A stretch of DNA of 64,000 bases from contig JBIOXV010000005.1 of NCBI GenBank assembly GCA_044869805.1, forward strand, positions 64,034-128,033. Reading direction: 5' to 3'. The notes under the pieces were generated by a model. It ran no database searches, was not told where the DNA came from, and was given only the letters and a program-made list of their open reading frames with translations. The DNA comes from Thermoanaerobaculia bacterium (lineage in GTDB: Bacteria > Acidobacteriota > Thermoanaerobaculia > Multivoradales > SZUA-115). Position numbers and translations under genes: made by a program. How positions within the stretch are numbered: the stretch's first letter is position 1; each line of letters begins with the position of its first letter. This document shows positions 56,385-64,000 of this stretch, piece after piece.

Positions 56385-56780
56385 TCAGGCTGCGTGGCTC
56401 AGCAGGCGATCCGCCAGCGCCGCCAGCTCGGGCAGGGGCATGGGCTTGCCGAGCATGGCGTCGGCGCCCAGCCCCAGGGCCTCGGCCTCGGCCTCGGGCG
56501 AGCCGTAGGCGGTGAGCACCACGATGCGCATGCCCGGCCGCCGGCGGCGGGCGAAGGCCACCAGGTCGAGGCCCTCGGCAGGCTCGCGGGCGGAGAGGCG
56601 GAGATCGACGATCATCAGCGCGTAGGGCCGCTCGGCGATCAGCGCTTCGGCGGCCGAGCGTTCGCCGGCGGCGTCGACTGCGTACCCGCGGGCGGAAAAA
56701 AAGTCGCGCAGAGCGAAGAGGATCGTGGTCTCGTCGTCGACCACCAAGAGGCGAGGCAGGGGTGGCTCGGGGAAGACCAC
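56385..56780 (-). CDS. Single-domain response regulator (REC)
   Basis: LLVVDDE...DLRL...GADAMLGKP receiver motifs. A GTG start at 56780 is proposed because the track ATG (56810) lies inside a sigma-54 promoter. TTG at 56747 is an alternative. Confidence 0.65.
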   Translation of the reverse strand: MVFPEPPLPRLLVVDDETTILFALRDFFSARGYAVDAAGERSAAEALIAERPYALMIVDLRLSAREPAEGLDLVAFARRRRPGMRIVVLTAYGSPEAEAEALGLGADAMLGKPMPLPELAALADRLLSHAA

Positions 56781-56793
56781 GCTTCCCTGTCGC

Positions 56794-56809
56794 CGCAAGC
56801 CACGTGCCA
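56794..56809 (-). promoter_or_regulatory. Sigma-54 -24/-12 promoter (TGGCACG-tggc-TTGCG)
   Basis: Exact TGGCAC-N5-TTGC on the minus strand, 50 nt downstream of the NtrC-family activator gene and immediately upstream of the REC/DUF4097 genes. Confidence 0.55.
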
Positions 56810-56858
56810 TGGCCCAGGGCGGGCCGGGCCCGCGCTTCCCGGCCCAGCGCGTCCCGAT

Positions 56859-58217
56859 TCAGGACGGCTGTCCGGATTCTGGAAACCTGATCCCGAAACG
56901 CTTGAGCTTCTGGTACAGCGTGCTGCGCGGCACGCCGAGCCGCTCGGCGACGCGCGCCACGCGCCCACCCTCCTCCGCCAGCACGCGCTCGATCAGCCGC
57001 CGCTCCATCTGCTCGAGGGTGAGGCGGGTGTCGATCGCCTCGCCCGCGGCTACGCCCGGGGCGAAGCGCAGGTCACGGGCATCGACCACCGCGCCTTCGG
57101 CCAGCAGGATGGCCCGCTCGAGCACATTGCGCAGCTCGCGGAGGTTGCCCGGCCAGCGGTAGGCGGCGAGCGCCTTCATGGCCTCGGAGGTGAGCTCGAC
57201 CTCGCCGCGGCCGAGCTCCGGCCGCAGCCGCTCGAGCACCGTCGCCACGAGCTGCGGCAGGTCGTCCAGGCGCTCGCGCAGCGGCGGGATCACCAGCGGG
57301 ATCGCCGCCAGCCGGTAGTAGAGATCGCTGCGGAAGGTGCGCCGCTCGACGAGCAGCGAGAGGTCCCAGTGGGTGGCCGAGATCAGGCGGATGTCCACGG
57401 CCCGGTCCTTGACGTCGCCCAGCCTGCGGAACCGCTTCTCCTCCAGCACCTTGAGCAGCTTGGGCTGGACTCCGACCTCGAGGTCGCCGATCTCGTCCAG
57501 GAACACCGTGCCGCGGTGCGCGGCCTCGAGCAGGCCGGCTTTGTGGAACGCGGCGCCGGTGAAGGCGCCCTTGACGTGCCCGAAGAGCTCGCTTTCGACC
57601 AGCTCCCGTGACAGGCCGGCGCAGTTCAAGTCCACGAACGCCTCCTCCGCGCGCGGGCCGCGGGCGTGCAGCCAGGCGGCGAGCACCCCCTTGCCGGAGC
57701 CGGTCTCGCCCTGGATCAGCAGCGGGCTCTCGCTGTCCACCACCTTCGCCGCCTGGGCCCGGAGCTCCCGGATGCCGCGGCTCGAGCCCACGAACGGGTC
57801 GAGGGGCCGGCGCAGCCCCCCGGCCTTGCCCGCCATCGTCTTCTGCCGGTTGCGCTGGTTCTCGAGCGCCCGCTCGAGGATCACCTCCAGCGCCGAGAGC
57901 TCCACCGGCTTGGTCAGGAAGTGCTCGGCTCCCTCGCGGATCGCCTCGACGGCGAGGTCGATCGAGCCGTAGGCGGTGAGGATCACCACCGGCAGCCGCA
58001 GGTGGGCCTCTCGGAGGCCGGCCAGCAGCGCCAGGGCGTTGCCGTCCGGCAGGTGGTGATCGACCACCGCGGCGGCGAACGGCTGCGCCTGCAGCCGCTC
58101 CAGCGCTTCGCGCTGGGTGGCGGCCTCGGCCACCTCGAAGCCCCGGCTCTCCAGGAAGGCGCGGACGCCGAAGCGGACGGCGTCCTGGTCGTCGACGACG
58201 AGGATGCGCCCGCGCAT
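56859..58217 (-). CDS. Sigma-54-dependent response regulator (NtrC family: REC + AAA+ + Fis HTH)
   Basis: Start at MRGRILVVDD. GAFTGA loop (FGHVKGAFTGA), Walker A GETGSGKG, R-finger region. C-terminal HTH (RVAERLGVPRSTLYQKLKRFGI). Confidence 0.85.
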   Translation of the reverse strand: MRGRILVVDDQDAVRFGVRAFLESRGFEVAEAATQREALERLQAQPFAAAVVDHHLPDGNALALLAGLREAHLRLPVVILTAYGSIDLAVEAIREGAEHFLTKPVELSALEVILERALENQRNRQKTMAGKAGGLRRPLDPFVGSSRGIRELRAQAAKVVDSESPLLIQGETGSGKGVLAAWLHARGPRAEEAFVDLNCAGLSRELVESELFGHVKGAFTGAAFHKAGLLEAAHRGTVFLDEIGDLEVGVQPKLLKVLEEKRFRRLGDVKDRAVDIRLISATHWDLSLLVERRTFRSDLYYRLAAIPLVIPPLRERLDDLPQLVATVLERLRPELGRGEVELTSEAMKALAAYRWPGNLRELRNVLERAILLAEGAVVDARDLRFAPGVAAGEAIDTRLTLEQMERRLIERVLAEEGGRVARVAERLGVPRSTLYQKLKRFGIRFPESGQPS

Positions 58218-59497
58218 CAGCCGGGGGCCGCCGGCTGCGAGGCGGCGCCGCGCTCGAGGGGCAGGCGCAGCAGCAGCTCGCCACCGCCGCCGTCGCGGTT
58301 GCCGGCCTGGATGGCGCCGCCGTGCTGCTCGACGATGCGATGGACGATCGACAACCCCAGGCCGGTGCCGTCCCGGCGGCGGCTGAAGAACGGCTCGAAG
58401 ACCTTGGGCAGATCCTCGGGCCGGAAGCCGGGGCCGGAGTCGCGCACCGCGCAGACCAGGGCCGGCGGCCGCCCTTCCGGGTCCAGCCCGCCCTCGACCT
58501 CGACCACCCCCGGCGCGGGGCTGTGCTGGATGGCGTTCTCGAGCAGGTTCTGGAGCACCTGCAGGATGCGTTGGCGGTCCATCGGCACCGGCGGCAGCCC
58601 GGGGGCGAGCCGCGGCAGGATTTCCACTTGCTCGCGCCCGGCGAGCGATGAACAGTTGGCGATCGCCTCCGCCACCACGTCGGCCAGGCTCTCGGTGCCG
58701 ACCTCGAGCCGCGGCGGCTTGCCGTAGTCGAGCAACTGGTTCATCAGCCGGTTCAGGCGCGCGAGCTGGCTGCGCAGCACGTAGAGGTACTGGCCGTACT
58801 CCTCGCGGCTGCCGAAGCGGCTCTCGAAGGCGTCGAGCGCCGCCGAGATGCCGAACAGGGGATTGCGCACCTCGTGCGCCACGCCCGCCACCAGCGAGCC
58901 CATGGCCGACATCACCTCGCTCTTGCGCAGCGACTCTTGGAGTCGCACCAGGCCGGTCACCTCGCGCGCCACCACGATCACGCGGTCCTCGCCCGGCGGC
59001 CCGTCCACCGATTCCGAAACGCTGGCTGACCCCGAGACACTGGCGGACCCCGAAACGCTCGCCGATAAATCCCAGGTGGCACCGGACACCAGGTCGACGG
59101 CCGAACGGGAGCGCGACACCCGGCCGCGGCCGACCTCCGCCGCCAGGGCCTCGGCGGCCGCCCACGGCTCCCCCCGCCCCAGCTCCCCCACCGCCAGGCC
59201 GAGGAGCTCGCGGTAGGGCCGGCCGGCGAGCAGGCTCGCGGCCAGGTTCATGCGCCGCACGCGCAGCCGCCCGTCCACCACCAGCAGCACGGACTCGACG
59301 GCGTCGAAGGTGAGCTGCCACTCGCGGGCCGCGTTGGCGATCGCCTCGCGCAGCCGCTCCTGCTCGCCCACCTCCCGCTCCCGCGCCTTGAGCGCCGCGT
59401 TCTCCCGCGCCAGGCGCAGGTTGCGCCGCCGGGCGGCGAGCAGCCCGAGGCTCAAGCCCAGGGCCGAAGCCGTGGCGAGTGCCGTGGTGCGCTTCAT
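58217..59497 (-). CDS. Sensor histidine kinase (TM, PAS-like, HisKA, HATPase_c)
   Basis: H-box VAGVAHEVRNPL, N-box LLENAIQHS, G-boxes DSGPGF and GTGLGLSIV. 1-nt overlap with the RR gene. Contains an SASVSG x3 repeat. Confidence 0.8.
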   Translation of the reverse strand: MKRTTALATASALGLSLGLLAARRRNLRLARENAALKAREREVGEQERLREAIANAAREWQLTFDAVESVLLVVDGRLRVRRMNLAASLLAGRPYRELLGLAVGELGRGEPWAAAEALAAEVGRGRVSRSRSAVDLVSGATWDLSASVSGSASVSGSASVSESVDGPPGEDRVIVVAREVTGLVRLQESLRKSEVMSAMGSLVAGVAHEVRNPLFGISAALDAFESRFGSREEYGQYLYVLRSQLARLNRLMNQLLDYGKPPRLEVGTESLADVVAEAIANCSSLAGREQVEILPRLAPGLPPVPMDRQRILQVLQNLLENAIQHSPAPGVVEVEGGLDPEGRPPALVCAVRDSGPGFRPEDLPKVFEPFFSRRRDGTGLGLSIVHRIVEQHGGAIQAGNRDGGGGELLLRLPLERGAASQPAAPG

Positions 59498-59690
59498 CAG
59501 TCCTCCTAAAAGCAGACAGTGTGTCTGGATCTCAGACGACGGGACACGAAATCATTTCAACGCGTGGCCAAAGACGGTCGCAAACTGCTAACCCTCACCG
59601 CGCGGCCCCTGGTACGCCTCTTGCTGAGTCTCGGATTGTTTCTAGCTACACCTGAAGTGCGTCGGCTCGTATCACGACATTTCTCGTAGT

Positions 59691-61061
59691 ATGGATCTAC
59701 AGAATGTCGAACCCTTGGTAGGGCCGTCCGCGCAGAGCCAAGGGCGGAGGAACGCGATCTTGATCGAGAAGACCGTGCTCGACAACGGTATCCGGGTCCT
59801 CACCGAGGCGGTCCCGGGCTCGCGCTCGATCTCGATCGGCGTGCTGGTCGACGCCGGACCGGCCGACGAGCAGGGCGGTGCCCGCGGCATCGCCCACCTG
59901 GTGGAGCACCTGCTGTTCCAGGGCACGGCGAGCCGCGACGCCCTGTCGATCGCCCGTCTGATGGACGGCGCCGGCGGGCAGGTCGGGGGCTTCGTCACCC
60001 GCGACTACACCTGTTTCACCGCCCATGTGCTCGACGACTACCGCTACCACGCGCTCGACCTGCTGGGCGACGCGCTGCTCAACTCCACCTTCCCCGAGGC
60101 GGCCGTGGAGCGACAGAAGGAGGCGATCGCCTGCGAGATCGAGGCGCGACGCGACTCCCCGCCCCACTTCGCTGAGGACCTGGTCAAGCAGCTCGCCTGG
60201 AGCGGCCACCCGCTCGGCCGCCCGGTGGCCGGCACCCCGGAGGCGGTGCGCGGCCTGACGCGCGAGGACGCCATCTACTTCGTCGCCCGCCACTACACGC
60301 CGGACCGCATCCTGGTCGCCGCCGCCGGCCACCTCGAGCACGCCGACTTCGTGGCCCAGGCCCGCGACGCCTTTTGGCGCCTGCTGGGCGAGGGCGTGCC
60401 CCGCAGGCGCGAGGCCGCCGGCCACTGCGGCGGCGTGGTGGTGCAGCACGCGCCGATCGCTCAGGCCTACTTCGCGCTCTCGCTTCCGGCCTTCGCCTTC
60501 GCCGCCCCCGAGCGCTACGCGCTGCACGTGCTCGACCGCCTGCTGGGCGGAGGCATCTCCTCGCGGCTCTTCCGGCGGGTGCGGGAGGAGCGCGGGCTGG
60601 TCTACTCGATCGGCAGCTCCTACCAGGCCTACGCCCAGGGCGGCACGCTGCTGGTCGAGGGCTCGACCACGCCCGAGAACCTGCCCGCCGTGCTGCGGCT
60701 CGTCTGCGCCGAGCTGGGCAAGCTGGCGACCGGCGAGGAGCCGGTCGACGACGAGGAGCTGTCGCGCTCCGTCACCTCGCTCATCAACCAGCACCTGATC
60801 GCCGCCGAGAGCTCGGCGGCGCGCATGAGCCGCCTGGCCACCCAGGAGCTCTACCTCGGCCGGCCGCTGCCGGCCGAGGAGATCGTCTACGCCCTGTCCC
60901 AGGTCGATCGCCGGTGCCTGGCGGAGCTCGCCCAGGGCTGGCTCGCGCCGGGCCTCGAGCACGCCGCGCTCGCCGTGGTGGCCGCCGAGGATCGCCTGGA
61001 CGCCGGCGCCGACTCGCTCCGCGTCCTCCTGGCCGAGGGCTGCCCTGCTGCCGTTCTGTAA
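59691..61061 (+). CDS. M16-family (insulinase/pitrilysin-like) zinc peptidase
   Basis: Inverted zinc motif HLVEHLLFQG (HxxEH) and downstream E residues. 456 aa. Confidence 0.8.
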   Translation: MDLQNVEPLVGPSAQSQGRRNAILIEKTVLDNGIRVLTEAVPGSRSISIGVLVDAGPADEQGGARGIAHLVEHLLFQGTASRDALSIARLMDGAGGQVGGFVTRDYTCFTAHVLDDYRYHALDLLGDALLNSTFPEAAVERQKEAIACEIEARRDSPPHFAEDLVKQLAWSGHPLGRPVAGTPEAVRGLTREDAIYFVARHYTPDRILVAAAGHLEHADFVAQARDAFWRLLGEGVPRRREAAGHCGGVVVQHAPIAQAYFALSLPAFAFAAPERYALHVLDRLLGGGISSRLFRRVREERGLVYSIGSSYQAYAQGGTLLVEGSTTPENLPAVLRLVCAELGKLATGEEPVDDEELSRSVTSLINQHLIAAESSAARMSRLATQELYLGRPLPAEEIVYALSQVDRRCLAELAQGWLAPGLEHAALAVVAAEDRLDAGADSLRVLLAEGCPAAVL

Positions 61062-61081
61062 ACCTACGGAGGAAACCGCCA

Positions 61082-61237
61082 TGCCACTGGACCCTGCCAT
61101 CAAGAGGACCTGGATCGAGATCCAGAAGAGCCACAACGTGCCGGTCAACGCCATCGGCGTGCCCATCGACCCCAAGGATCAGATGACCCTGCGGGTGTGG
61201 CGCGAGGAAGGCATCGACAAGTTCATCCGCACCTGAG
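61082..61237 (+). CDS. Small ORF (51 aa), absent from the track, with a strong SD
   Basis: GGAGGA 8 nt upstream of the ATG. Genome-typical GC3-rich codons. MPLDPAIKRTWIEIQKSHNVPVNAIGVPIDPKDQMTLRVWREEGIDKFIRT. No family recognised. Confidence 0.4.
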
Positions 61238-61280
61238 CCGCACGCCGCAGCGGAGGGAGCTCAAGGAGAGAGGCGACAGC

Positions 61281-62312
61281 ATGCTGGCCGTCGATCGACA
61301 ACGGGATCTGCTGAAGAAGGGGATCGCCGCCGCCAAGCAGGGCGACAAGGCGGCGGCGCGAGAGAAGCTGCTGGAGGCGGCCGAGCTCGCGCCGCACCAG
61401 GAGCTGGCCTGGCTTTGGCTCGCCTCGGTGGGGGCCAACCGCGACGAGACCATCTCCTTCCTGGAGAAGGCGCTCGCCATCAACCCCGGCGACGAGCGCA
61501 CCCGGAGCTGGCTCGAGCGGGTGCGCGCCGGGCGCACCCAGAAACGCAAGCACTGGCGCTGCCCGTTCTGCCACGGCGAGTCGCTGGTGGAGGTCGCCAA
61601 GTGCCCGCAGTGCAAGGCGATGGTGCGTCTCGACGACCTCGACGGCCTGCTCGCCAACGCCGAGGCCGACGGCGACATCCTGCGCGCCGCCCTCGACCGG
61701 CTGGAGGCCTTGAGCGGCGACGCGGTCACCTTCGAGGTGCACCTGGCGATCGCCCTGGGCTACCTCAACCTGCGGCGTACCTACGAGGGCCTGACGCGGC
61801 TGCGCGTGGCGCGGCAGCTCAAGCCCGACGATCCCCGGCTCGCCGCGGTGATCGAGGATCTGGCCCGCCGCCAGGAGGCGAGTGCCCGCACCGCCGCCTA
61901 CCTGGCGCGGCCGCCGGCGCCGGGCCGGCCGGGACGCAAAGTGCTGGTGGTCGACGACAGCCCGACCGTGCTCAAGATCGTCGGCGTGGCGCTCGAACGC
62001 CACGGCCACGAGGTGCTGGTGGCTGGCAACGCCCTGCAGGCCCTGGCCAAGCTCGACGAGCTGGTGCCCGACCTCATCCTGCTCGACGTCTCGATGCCGC
62101 ACATGGACGGCTACCAGCTCTGCAAGCTGGTACGCGCCAACCCCAGCACCAGCGCCGTGCCGGTGGTGATGCTGTCGGGCAAGGACGGCTTCCTCGACAA
62201 GGTCCGCGGCCGTCTGGCCGGCGCCACGGACTACATCACCAAGCCGTTCGACCCCGCCCACCTGGTCAGGGCCGTCGAGCTTCACTGCCCGCGGGAGGCG
62301 CATGCCGGTTGA
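61281..62312 (+). CDS. Response regulator with N-terminal TPR-like/zinc-ribbon domain and C-terminal CheY-like receiver
   Basis: AAGGAGAG RBS. Start at MLAVDRQRDLL. CPFCHGESLVEVAKCPQCK zinc ribbon. REC motifs KVLVVDDSP...LILLDVSMP...DYITKPF. Confidence 0.75.
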   Translation: MLAVDRQRDLLKKGIAAAKQGDKAAAREKLLEAAELAPHQELAWLWLASVGANRDETISFLEKALAINPGDERTRSWLERVRAGRTQKRKHWRCPFCHGESLVEVAKCPQCKAMVRLDDLDGLLANAEADGDILRAALDRLEALSGDAVTFEVHLAIALGYLNLRRTYEGLTRLRVARQLKPDDPRLAAVIEDLARRQEASARTAAYLARPPAPGRPGRKVLVVDDSPTVLKIVGVALERHGHEVLVAGNALQALAKLDELVPDLILLDVSMPHMDGYQLCKLVRANPSTSAVPVVMLSGKDGFLDKVRGRLAGATDYITKPFDPAHLVRAVELHCPREAHAG

Positions 62313-63210
62313 CGGGGATCTGAGGGACTTCGAGATCGGGAGCGTCGTGCAGCTGCTGTGCACGGAGGGGCGCTCGGTGGGCTTGGTGGTGCGCCGCCGC
62401 GGCGAGGAGGGGGTGCTCTACCTCGAGGAGGGCGAGATCGTCCACGCCTTGCTCGGCCCGCTCGAGGGCGAGAAGGCGGTGTTCGAGCTCCTGACCTGGC
62501 AGGACGGCACCTTCCGCATCACCGACCGCGTGCGCTCGCCGGGTAGGAGCATCCACACCGGCTGGCGGCACTTGATGCTGGAGGCGGCGCGGCAGATGGA
62601 CGAGAGCCTGCGCGACCGCGCCGATGCCGCGGAGCTCTCTCTGGCAGGTTTCGCCCCCGGGCTCCCGATCGCCAACGACGAGCTCGGCTGGGAGGTCGCC
62701 GAGAGCGACGACGACCTCGAGGGCGAGCTCATGCTGCTGCTGTCGCAGCTCGAGCAGGGCATGGCGCGGCTGAGCTCCGACAAGACCAGGAAGCGGCCCC
62801 TGGCCGCGCTCGAAGGGTTGGCCGACATGCTCAACCAGGCGGTGGCCTTCGCCGAGAGCTCCGCGCACGGGAAGGCGGCGGCGGGGCTCGCCCTGAGCAC
62901 CGCGTTCTCGGCCTCCTCGGTGCTCAAGGGCGCCATCGCCCGCCATCCGATGGCGCGCCTGTTGACCGTGCAGTCGAACCGCCTCTCGGTCGCCAACGCC
63001 GCCAGCTTCTACCGCACCTGGGCCGCCGACGCGGCGGAGCGGGGGCGGGTGTTCCGCGACATCGCCCGCGCCCTGGGCCTGGCTCTCGAGACCTTCCTCG
63101 AGCTCTGTGGCCGTCGCCTGCGCTCGCCCGCCGCCGCGACCGAATGGCGCGAAAGCTACGGCGTCTTCCTCCGTGACCTGGCGGTCGCCATCGACCGCAT
63201 CCCTTTCTGA
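62302..63210 (+). CDS. PATAN/DUF4388 domain protein
   Basis: N-terminal GDLRDFEIGSVVQLLCTEGRSGLV...YLEEGEIVHA matches the DUF4388 (PATAN) core, then an alpha-helical C-terminus. 11-nt overlap with the upstream REC gene. Confidence 0.65.
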   Translation: MPVDGDLRDFEIGSVVQLLCTEGRSVGLVVRRRGEEGVLYLEEGEIVHALLGPLEGEKAVFELLTWQDGTFRITDRVRSPGRSIHTGWRHLMLEAARQMDESLRDRADAAELSLAGFAPGLPIANDELGWEVAESDDDLEGELMLLLSQLEQGMARLSSDKTRKRPLAALEGLADMLNQAVAFAESSAHGKAAAGLALSTAFSASSVLKGAIARHPMARLLTVQSNRLSVANAASFYRTWAADAAERGRVFRDIARALGLALETFLELCGRRLRSPAAATEWRESYGVFLRDLAVAIDRIPF

Positions 63211-63232
63211 TCGGTTCGTGAAGGAGATCTCG

Positions 63233-63598
63233 ATGCCCGGCCAGACGATCCTGCTAGTCGACGACAGCCCCACCGACCTGAAGCTGATGACGCAGGCGCT
63301 CTCGCCACGGGGCTACCACCTGCTGACCGCGGCGGACGGCGAGGAGGCGCTGGAGAAGGCGGCGAGCGTGCGGCCCGACCTCATCTTCCTCGACGTCGTG
63401 CTGCCGAAGAAGAACGGCTTCCAGGTCTGCCGTCAGTTGAAGACCACGCCCGACACCAAGGACATCAAGATCGTGCTGGTGACCAGCAAGACGCAGGACA
63501 GCGACCGCTTCTGGGGTTTGAAGCAGGGCGCCGACGAGTACCTGACCAAGCCGTTCTCCGACGACGAGCTGCGCGCCGCCGCGGCTCGCAACCTGTAG
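63233..63598 (+). CDS. CheY-like single-domain response regulator
   Basis: AAGGAGA RBS. ILLVDDSPTDL, LIFLDVVLP, KIVLVTSK, and EYLTKPF receiver motifs. Confidence 0.85.
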   Translation: MPGQTILLVDDSPTDLKLMTQALSPRGYHLLTAADGEEALEKAASVRPDLIFLDVVLPKKNGFQVCRQLKTTPDTKDIKIVLVTSKTQDSDRFWGLKQGADEYLTKPFSDDELRAAAARNL

Positions 63599-63620
63599 CG
63601 GAGGCCGAGGAGGAAACGCC

Positions 63621-64000
63621 ATGGACGAGCACGGCACCGGCGAGGACGGCGGCCAGGCCGACGCGCTGGCGGCGCTTCTCGGGGCGCTCGACTCCGAGGT
63701 CGCGAGCCATCCCGAGCCGCCTCGCCGGCGAACGCCCGCAACGGCGACCGGCTCGCCGGCGCCCCCGGGGGCCGAGCCGGTGCGCGAGGCTCTCGAGGAG
63801 GCCGGCACTGAGCGCTACATCGTCTTCTCTCTCGGCCGCGCCCGCTACGCGGTGCCGATCGGCGCCGTGATCGAGGTCGGCGCCGTGCCGCCCGTCACCC
63901 CGGTGCCCCACCTGCCGGCCTGGGTGCTGGGCGTCACCAACCTGCGCGGCGAGATCCTGTCGGTGGTGGACCTCGCCGGCTTCCTCGGCGCCAGCCCCGA
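63621..64000 (+). CDS. CheW-like domain protein (5' partial; runs off the window)
   Basis: GAGGAGGA RBS. RYIVFSLGRARYAVPIGAVIEV...LPAWVLGVTNLRGEILSVVDLAGFLG is a CheW-like fold. Confidence 0.7.
   Translation, partial: MDEHGTGEDGGQADALAALLGALDSEVASHPEPPRRRTPATATGSPAPPGAEPVREALEEAGTERYIVFSLGRARYAVPIGAVIEVGAVPPVTPVPHLPAWVLGVTNLRGEILSVVDLAGFLGASP

Follow-up and report, generated by a model that had tools for sequence, protein, structure and literature searches.

The DNA analysed here, referred to as the window, is a stretch of 64,000 nucleotides from a Thermoanaerobaculia bacterium (assembly GCA_044869805.1, contig JBIOXV010000005.1, positions 64,034 to 128,033). Its end, positions 59760–64000, constitutes the first six genes of an eight-gene operon on the plus strand, with the genes for a methyl-accepting chemotaxis protein (MCP) and a hybrid CheA located just past the last nucleotide. 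The first gene encodes an M16 zinc peptidase of 433 residues and probably starts with TTG (59760–61061), and it is followed by the gene for a 51-residue protein, here called the miniprotein, whose family carries no annotation (61081–61236 including the stop codon). Thereafter come a response regulator of 343 residues, which has a TPR-like N-terminal part, a zinc ribbon of the form CxxC-x10-CxxC and a receiver at its C-terminus (61281–62312), a PATAN (DUF4388/PatA_N) protein of 302 residues (62302–63210), a CheY-like single-domain response regulator of 121 residues (63233–63598), and the 5' part of a CheW gene (63621–64000) that is cut by the window end, each of these four having a domain recognized by Pfam. 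The gaps between the genes, from M16 to CheW, are 19, 44, -11, 22 and 22 nt, the negative value being the overlap of 11 nt between the start of the PATAN gene and the stop of the 343-residue receiver gene. Scans for σ70 promoters and terminators gave none inside the operon, Rfam at a permissive threshold gave no element there and only one chance match to a microRNA, and NCBIfam added no specific name to the proteins. Taken as a whole, the operon probably encodes a PatA/type IV pilus (Tfp)-like chemosensory pathway. The cluster itself is ordinary; what is unexpected is the conserved module of peptidase and miniprotein at its head. A preliminary description of this DNA had given the order receiver, PATAN, CheY and CheW, which is confirmed by Pfam with all genes on the plus strand and closely spaced. 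It had also let the cluster start at 61082 with a small open reading frame (ORF) at 61082–61237; the ORF is there, one base away from that position, and the start of the cluster has been moved to the M16 gene (about 59760) because the M16–miniprotein pair is a conserved member of the cluster.

The continuation past position 64000 is seen in two other contigs. Over 4987 nt, contig L001 (GCA_044868515.1) has 99.86% identity with the window, and it continues with a CheW of 211 residues, an MCP of 643 residues containing HAMP (44 bits) and MCPsignal (136 bits) domains, and, at the contig end, a histidine phosphotransfer (Hpt) domain that is the start of CheA. The second, L013, is a contig of 951 kb from an Acidobacteriota metagenome-assembled genome with 83% nucleotide identity to the window, and it holds the complete cluster in the order M16, small ORF, zinc-ribbon receiver, PATAN, CheY, CheW, MCP and CheA, after which genes on the minus strand follow. 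With MCP, CheW and CheA encoded together in L001 and L013 this is a Che-type signalling cluster, and the MCP and CheA genes that had been predicted beyond the window are present where they were expected. The L013 CheA has 948 residues and the architecture Hpt-Hpt-dimerisation (H-kinase_dim)-HATPase_c-CheW-Response_reg, with no match to a P2 domain. More than one Hpt domain, a C-terminal receiver and the lack of P2 are the marks of the Tfp class, although the combination of several Hpt domains with a C-terminal receiver is common to the class of alternative cellular functions (ACF) and is insufficient alone for an assignment to the Tfp class. CheA proteins of this kind are described from both the Tfp and the ACF classes (PMC10782961). 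Neither CheB nor CheR is encoded in the cluster of the window's lineage.

The 51-residue ORF is a genuine gene. A GGAGGA sequence is located 7 nt ahead of its ATG, in agreement with the good Shine-Dalgarno site reported for it earlier, and a similar site precedes 77 of 79 genomic copies. These copies come from genomes with 32–71% G+C, and compared pairwise they are identical, on average, at 0.77 of first, 0.875 of second and 0.43 of third codon positions; this codon-position pattern together with the conservation rules out a spurious ORF. A search of 5.8 billion proteins gave 136 homologues with E-values down to 1e-24, nearly all of exactly 51 residues and 64–90% identical, from sources that include Acidobacteria, Bryobacteraceae, Desulfobacteraceae, Isosphaeraceae and Desulfobulbus propionicus (Despr_2337), and every one of them is annotated as hypothetical. 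In other assemblies the small ORF is called as a gene by NCBI, JGI, ENA and Logan. Relatives are found in 192 species when one genome from each of 185,579 species is scanned, and the carriers belong to four phyla, Acidobacteriota, Desulfobacterota, Chloroflexota and Planctomycetota, across which the small ORF is kept at the same position, the conservation that the preliminary description had proposed to look for. Cultured carriers are Desulfobulbus propionicus DSM 2032, Desulfonema magnum and Desulfoluna species; none of them has an entry in the supplementary tables of the CheA survey cited above (PMC10782961), and the Desulfobulbus locus tags are not mentioned in the papers found, the coverage of which is incomplete.

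In an alignment of 32 members, 13 columns are invariant, namely W11, Q15, the motif P21-V-N-A-I-G26, I29, D33, T36, W40 and D46. The AlphaFold2 model is compact (predicted local distance difference test, pLDDT, 93.3; predicted template-modelling score, pTM, 0.71), with predicted helices at residues 5–16, 34–42 and 45–48 and with the PVNAIG motif lying in the loop between the first two of them. Neither by sequence nor by fold is there a similar entry for the miniprotein in Pfam, NCBIfam or the PDB. The 32 aligned members gave only scattered chance matches against Pfam at E-values up to 10, and a profile search of the PDB gave nothing significant, the best match (E 0.026) being to an unrelated kinase over a length of 23 residues. 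When 1.84 billion representative proteins were searched exhaustively with a profile, 88 clusters at 50% identity were obtained, nearly all of them stand-alone proteins of 50–70 residues, and no parent domain family emerged from them. A few fusions exist, in which the miniprotein follows an FHA domain, precedes an Smr domain, or is followed by a transmembrane segment and an unknown domain of 380 residues (P0178, P0134, P0187), and these suggest that the miniprotein is a portable interaction or binding domain. The median identity to the window proteins across the phyla is 66% for the miniprotein, 66% for CheY and 62% for the MCP signalling domain, followed by 51% for M16, 45% for the CheA kinase core and 32–35% for CheW, PATAN and the TPR/zinc-ribbon region; the miniprotein is, by this value, among the most constrained parts of the system.

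The peptidase encoded upstream matches Peptidase_M16 (PF00675) with 102 bits and Peptidase_M16_C (PF05193) with 109 bits. Its zinc motif reads HLVEH, and HxxEH is found in 72 of 72 full-length orthologues, three further ones being fragments cut by contig ends. With both domains and the HxxEH motif the protein has the sequence of an M16 metallopeptidase in its active form. The longest ORF opens at the ATG at 59691; the true start is probably the TTG at 59760, giving 433 residues, because the ATG codon is not conserved in L013. The TTG is preceded by GGAGGA, and the gene is called with 433 residues in L001–L004. With the NCBIfam model for PqqF it reaches 27.6 bits, where the cut-off is 320, and the score with YfmF is also far under its cut-off.

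Eighty genome loci with flanks of 10 kb were mapped with domain probes taken from the window and the first relatives. The M16 gene is located directly upstream of the miniprotein gene in 62 of the 80 loci, a receiver-domain gene is located directly downstream in 58, and chemosensory genes are found within 10 kb in 67; among the remaining 13, six have less than 2 kb of downstream flank. Two layouts occur. In Acidobacteriota, Chloroflexota and Planctomycetota the pair is at the head, in the order M16, miniprotein, TPR/Zn-REC (receiver), PATAN (not always present), CheY, CheW, MCP, CheR (in some) and CheA. In Desulfobacterota the pair is internal, in the order PATAN-TPR-Zn-REC, CheY, CheW, CheA, CheW, M16, miniprotein, CheY (in some) and MCP. 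That the pair belongs to the cluster in both arrangements argues against mere neighbourhood. Approached from the peptidase, the picture is the same: each of three M16 homologues (54–56% identical), picked solely for lying on long contigs, precedes the miniprotein gene, in one or two copies, and these chemosensory genes. Peptidase and miniprotein make up an accessory module that is conserved in this cluster type in about 190 species of the four phyla, and of which we found no description anywhere in a literature coverage that is incomplete; with the same limit, no paper was found that reports an M16 peptidase or a small protein as part of a chemosensory cluster.

The 343-residue protein encoded downstream of the miniprotein has a Response_reg domain at residues 221–332 (97.5 bits, Pfam) with a complete receiver active site, consisting of the acidic pair, the phospho-acceptor Asp in LLDVSMP, a Ser and a Lys. 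Its N-terminal part had been described as TPR plus zinc ribbon. The ribbon, CPFC-x10-CPQC, can be read directly in the translation, and only one of 27 split orthologues and none of 31 fused ones lack it; the TPR assignment does not stand beyond the wording TPR-like, the TPR_2 score of 23.5 bits being below the cut-off of 27. The PATAN protein belongs to its family by a domain (PF14332) at residues 5–101 that scores 75.9 bits against a gathering cut-off of 25, as the search with a hidden Markov model proposed earlier was expected to give, and it ends in an uncharacterized bundle of helices. It has no receiver of its own; the receiver is encoded by the preceding gene, and the protein is therefore not of the PatA type, in which PATAN and REC are joined in one protein. 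Desulfobacterota relatives do have PATAN and REC in one protein, with a TPR-like/zinc-ribbon insert between them. A simple fission of a PatA-type regulator is ruled out by the order of the parts, which is PATAN-TPR-Zn-REC in the fused form and TPR-Zn-REC followed by PATAN in the split form. CheY scores 96.2 bits with Response_reg and has the DD, D, T and K residues, and the CheW domain scores 64.3 bits in the part within the window and 109 bits in the full-length L001 protein of 211 residues.

The CheW of the window carries an N-terminal extension of 60 residues. This extension is long and variable in other loci (L011 12478–15180; L093 13164–15167), reaching about 520 residues in a Gemmataceae locus and about 750 in a Bryobacteraceae locus, and in the Gemmataceae protein it has faint matches to cell-surface repeats. 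In L094 (12983–15380), genes for a ParA/MipZ-like ATPase and a hemerythrin are inserted among those for CheY, CheW and MCP, an arrangement that recalls array positioning of the ParC/ParP type.

The likeness to Pix- and Pil-type systems put forward in the preliminary description holds for the gene set and the CheA architecture; the link to pili would come from analogy with cyanobacterial PATAN regulators. The cyanobacterial Tax/Pix system consists of PixG (PatA-type), PixH (CheY), PixI (CheW), PixJ (MCP) and PixL (hybrid CheA), and resembles the operon in beginning with PATAN and a further CheY-like receiver, followed by CheW, MCP and a hybrid CheA with a C-terminal receiver, as well as in the lack of CheB and CheR in the cluster of the window's lineage. 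It differs in that the PATAN protein of the window is separate and has a helical C-terminal domain, with the receiver placed on the preceding TPR-like/zinc-ribbon protein, and in that the window cluster adds the M16 peptidase and the 51-residue protein. Cyanobacteria are absent both from the 80 listed carrier loci and from the organisms named as sources of the database matches. The Pil-Chp system of Pseudomonas aeruginosa (PilG, PilH, PilI, PilJ, PilK, ChpA, ChpB) likewise has two receivers, a CheW, an MCP and a multi-Hpt CheA with a C-terminal receiver, and FimL_C is recorded by Pfam on the CheA of two related loci; unlike Pil-Chp, the present system has only two Hpt domains in CheA, lacks CheB and CheR in the window's lineage and includes the peptidase–miniprotein pair. 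To our knowledge Pil-Chp has no PATAN domain.

The pair itself has partial counterparts. An M16 peptidase with an intact HxxEH beside a tiny ORF, sometimes in tandem, is reminiscent of PqqF/PqqG with PqqA and of AlbE/AlbF with the subtilosin precursor, but here modifying enzymes, of the radical-SAM or another kind, are absent from the cluster, conservation covers the entire small protein, which is predicted to be folded, and the partner is a pathway of signalling and not of biosynthesis. As a short cytosolic protein of a chemosensory cluster, encoded mostly beside a receiver gene, the miniprotein is also comparable with CheZ, CheX/CheC, CheD, CheS and FtgA, although it has no similarity in sequence or fold to a described family and is coupled to a peptidase.

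From these likenesses a working scheme can be proposed. The MCP, coupled through CheW, would control the hybrid CheA, the Hpt domains of which would hand phosphate on to three receivers, namely that of CheA itself, CheY and the zinc-ribbon receiver protein. Cyanobacterial PatA-type regulators suggest, by analogy, that the output might be given by the PATAN protein; in Synechocystis a PATAN output domain binds PilB1 and PilC (Han et al., bioRxiv 10.1101/2021.06.11.447907). We infer a type IV pilus output for the window cluster from this analogy. The miniprotein would be a folded cytosolic protein of three helices that binds a component of the pathway, the likeliest partner being the receiver protein encoded directly downstream. 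M16-family peptidases act on substrates that are small enough for their closed chamber, and the co-translated M16 with its intact active site might limit or process the miniprotein, in which case the branch formed by the two would be a proteolytic reset or adaptation of the pathway. That the two are a protease and its substrate, or a protease-regulated adaptor, is the best-supported idea for their relation and is put forward tentatively, as something that may well turn out otherwise; it is favoured by the chambered M16, the size of 51 residues, the translational coupling, the intact active site and the abutting receiver gene. A more specific version, in which the miniprotein docks on the receiver or PATAN protein and its destruction by M16 terminates or adapts the signal, replacing CheB/CheR or a CheZ-type phosphatase in a hitherto unknown proteolytic control branch of at least four phyla, is a speculative proposal with a small chance of being right.

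Several observations weigh against a pilus-directed pathway with a dedicated protease–substrate pair. In six loci the chemosensory cluster includes the miniprotein gene but has no M16 gene next to it, and seven copies are solitary, outside any chemosensory cluster, from which it follows that the two genes are separable, and the protease–substrate idea itself would be drawn from adjacency, size and an intact active site. As to the output, a motif scan of the 64-kb window in all frames gave no PilB/PilT Walker A or prepilin motif, a scan of limited regions found a PilB/T-like motif in only four of the 80 related loci, and neither scan connected the cluster with type IV pilus genes, in the genome or by function. 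PATAN, furthermore, is undetected in most of the Bryobacterales-type and Planctomycetota clusters that carry the pair. These last points, the occurrence of multi-Hpt CheA with a C-terminal receiver in the ACF class as well as the Tfp class, and a PATAN protein that has no receiver and ends in an unknown helical domain all favour a cluster of the ACF class, which would control, for instance, exopolysaccharide production, development or gene expression instead of pili and in which PATAN would have a different target. We consider this unlikely on balance, though it is the alternative to be taken most seriously: PATAN regulators at chemosensory loci have so far been tied to pilus motors, the gene set, two receivers with a CheW, an MCP and a hybrid CheA, is the counterpart of PilG/H/I/J/ChpA and PixG/H/I/J/L, and the FimL_C matches mentioned above point the same way.

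Two other explanations concern the pair. In other pathways small precursors are processed to maturity by M16 peptidases, as PqqA is by PqqF, and the 51-residue product might be a precursor of the kind of ribosomally synthesized and post-translationally modified peptides (RiPPs) or pheromones, matured by M16 and sensed as a ligand by the MCP of the cluster; the tandem copies, two or three in eight loci, and the position of the pair directly ahead of the MCP gene in Desulfobacterota would fit. We regard this as improbable. A signal peptide is absent from both the miniprotein and the peptidase, no exporter or modifying enzyme is present in the clusters examined, all 51 residues are conserved with no variable core, the fold is predicted with confidence (pLDDT 93), and the same domain is fused to cytosolic FHA and Smr domains; the miniprotein does not, on these grounds, qualify as a RiPP precursor with an M16 maturase of the PQQ type. 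That the pair should be housekeeping genes merely adjacent to the chemosensory ones is hardly credible, even if the seven solitary copies and the wide distribution of M16 enzymes as general peptidases speak in its favour, for the association is kept through two layouts and four phyla, the pair lies inside the cluster between CheW and MCP in Desulfobacterota, the genes are tightly spaced and sometimes overlap, and all three blindly sampled M16 homologues are located in such clusters.

Few bacterial signalling systems have been charted as well as the chemosensory pathways, and the list of their accessory proteins has been thought to be nearly complete. The miniprotein represents an unannotated family that roughly equals CheY in its conservation across phyla, is paired with an apparently active peptidase and belongs to a widespread PATAN/Tfp-like cluster; it shows by example that an ORF of 51 codons, passed over in one annotation track, can be a core gene. 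Should the pair take part in signalling, proteolysis of the miniprotein would be an added way to terminate or adapt a chemosensory signal, and would offer a handle on surface behaviour in the poorly studied Acidobacteriota, Chloroflexota, Desulfobacterota and Planctomycetota. The cultured carriers make the role of the pair directly testable.

The solitary miniprotein paralogues are those of L033, L045, L046, L049, L069, L070 and L088, and most of them have the motif variant KIKPxD. In L033, L046 and L070, all from Desulfobacterota, the solitary gene is located directly after a gene for a PAS-σ54 activator, and in L070 it is followed by two radical-SAM/SPASM genes. Tandem miniprotein genes are found mostly in Chloroflexota, with two copies in L019, L020, L030, L037, L072, L073 and L094 and three in L086, and the copies are 70–90% identical to one another. 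Runs of about 100 N are located 0.1–2.8 kb from the miniprotein gene in the M16-less L033, L045, L046, L080 and L085, probably a feature of the data set.

The operon is preceded by an intergenic region (59498–59759) that is about 90% identical between the window and L013, above the 83% of the coding DNA. No σ70-like promoter was found in a scan upstream of the operon. A candidate promoter is the σ54-like -24/-12 element TGGTACGCCTCTTGC at 59610–59624 on the plus strand, which has one mismatch to TGGCAC-N5-TTGC with the GG and GC kept, and its counterpart in L013 is TGGTATGCCTCTTGC. Matches of this kind are not enriched across the window, and the argument for the element is its position and conservation. 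Sites resembling σ54 promoters are also found ahead of some of the M16-less and solitary miniprotein genes, including those of L033, L046 and L069. A perfect palindrome, CAGACA-GTG-TGTCTG, is located at 59513–59527 and is identical in L013; it is a candidate upstream activator site for the NtrC-type regulator encoded divergently.

This regulator is part of a two-component pair on the minus strand (56859–59497). The histidine kinase (58217–59497) has HisKA and HATPase_c domains in the window protein, and for the REC-σ54-activator-HTH regulator (56859–58217) the domains Response_reg, Sigma54_activat and HTH_8 are recorded in the L001 orthologue. Divergent from the operon and adjoining the σ54-like site, the two are candidate regulators of it, a link that we infer from the arrangement. 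A perfect match to the σ54 consensus, TGGCACGTGGCTTGC, is located at 56795–56809 on the minus strand, just upstream of a minus-strand receiver gene at about 56385–56810, and may belong to a second σ54-dependent unit. The kinase gene contains, at 59001–59053, six-residue repeats encoding units of the SASVSG type, the copy number of which differs by one 18-nt unit, giving a kinase of 426 residues in the window and of 432 in L001.

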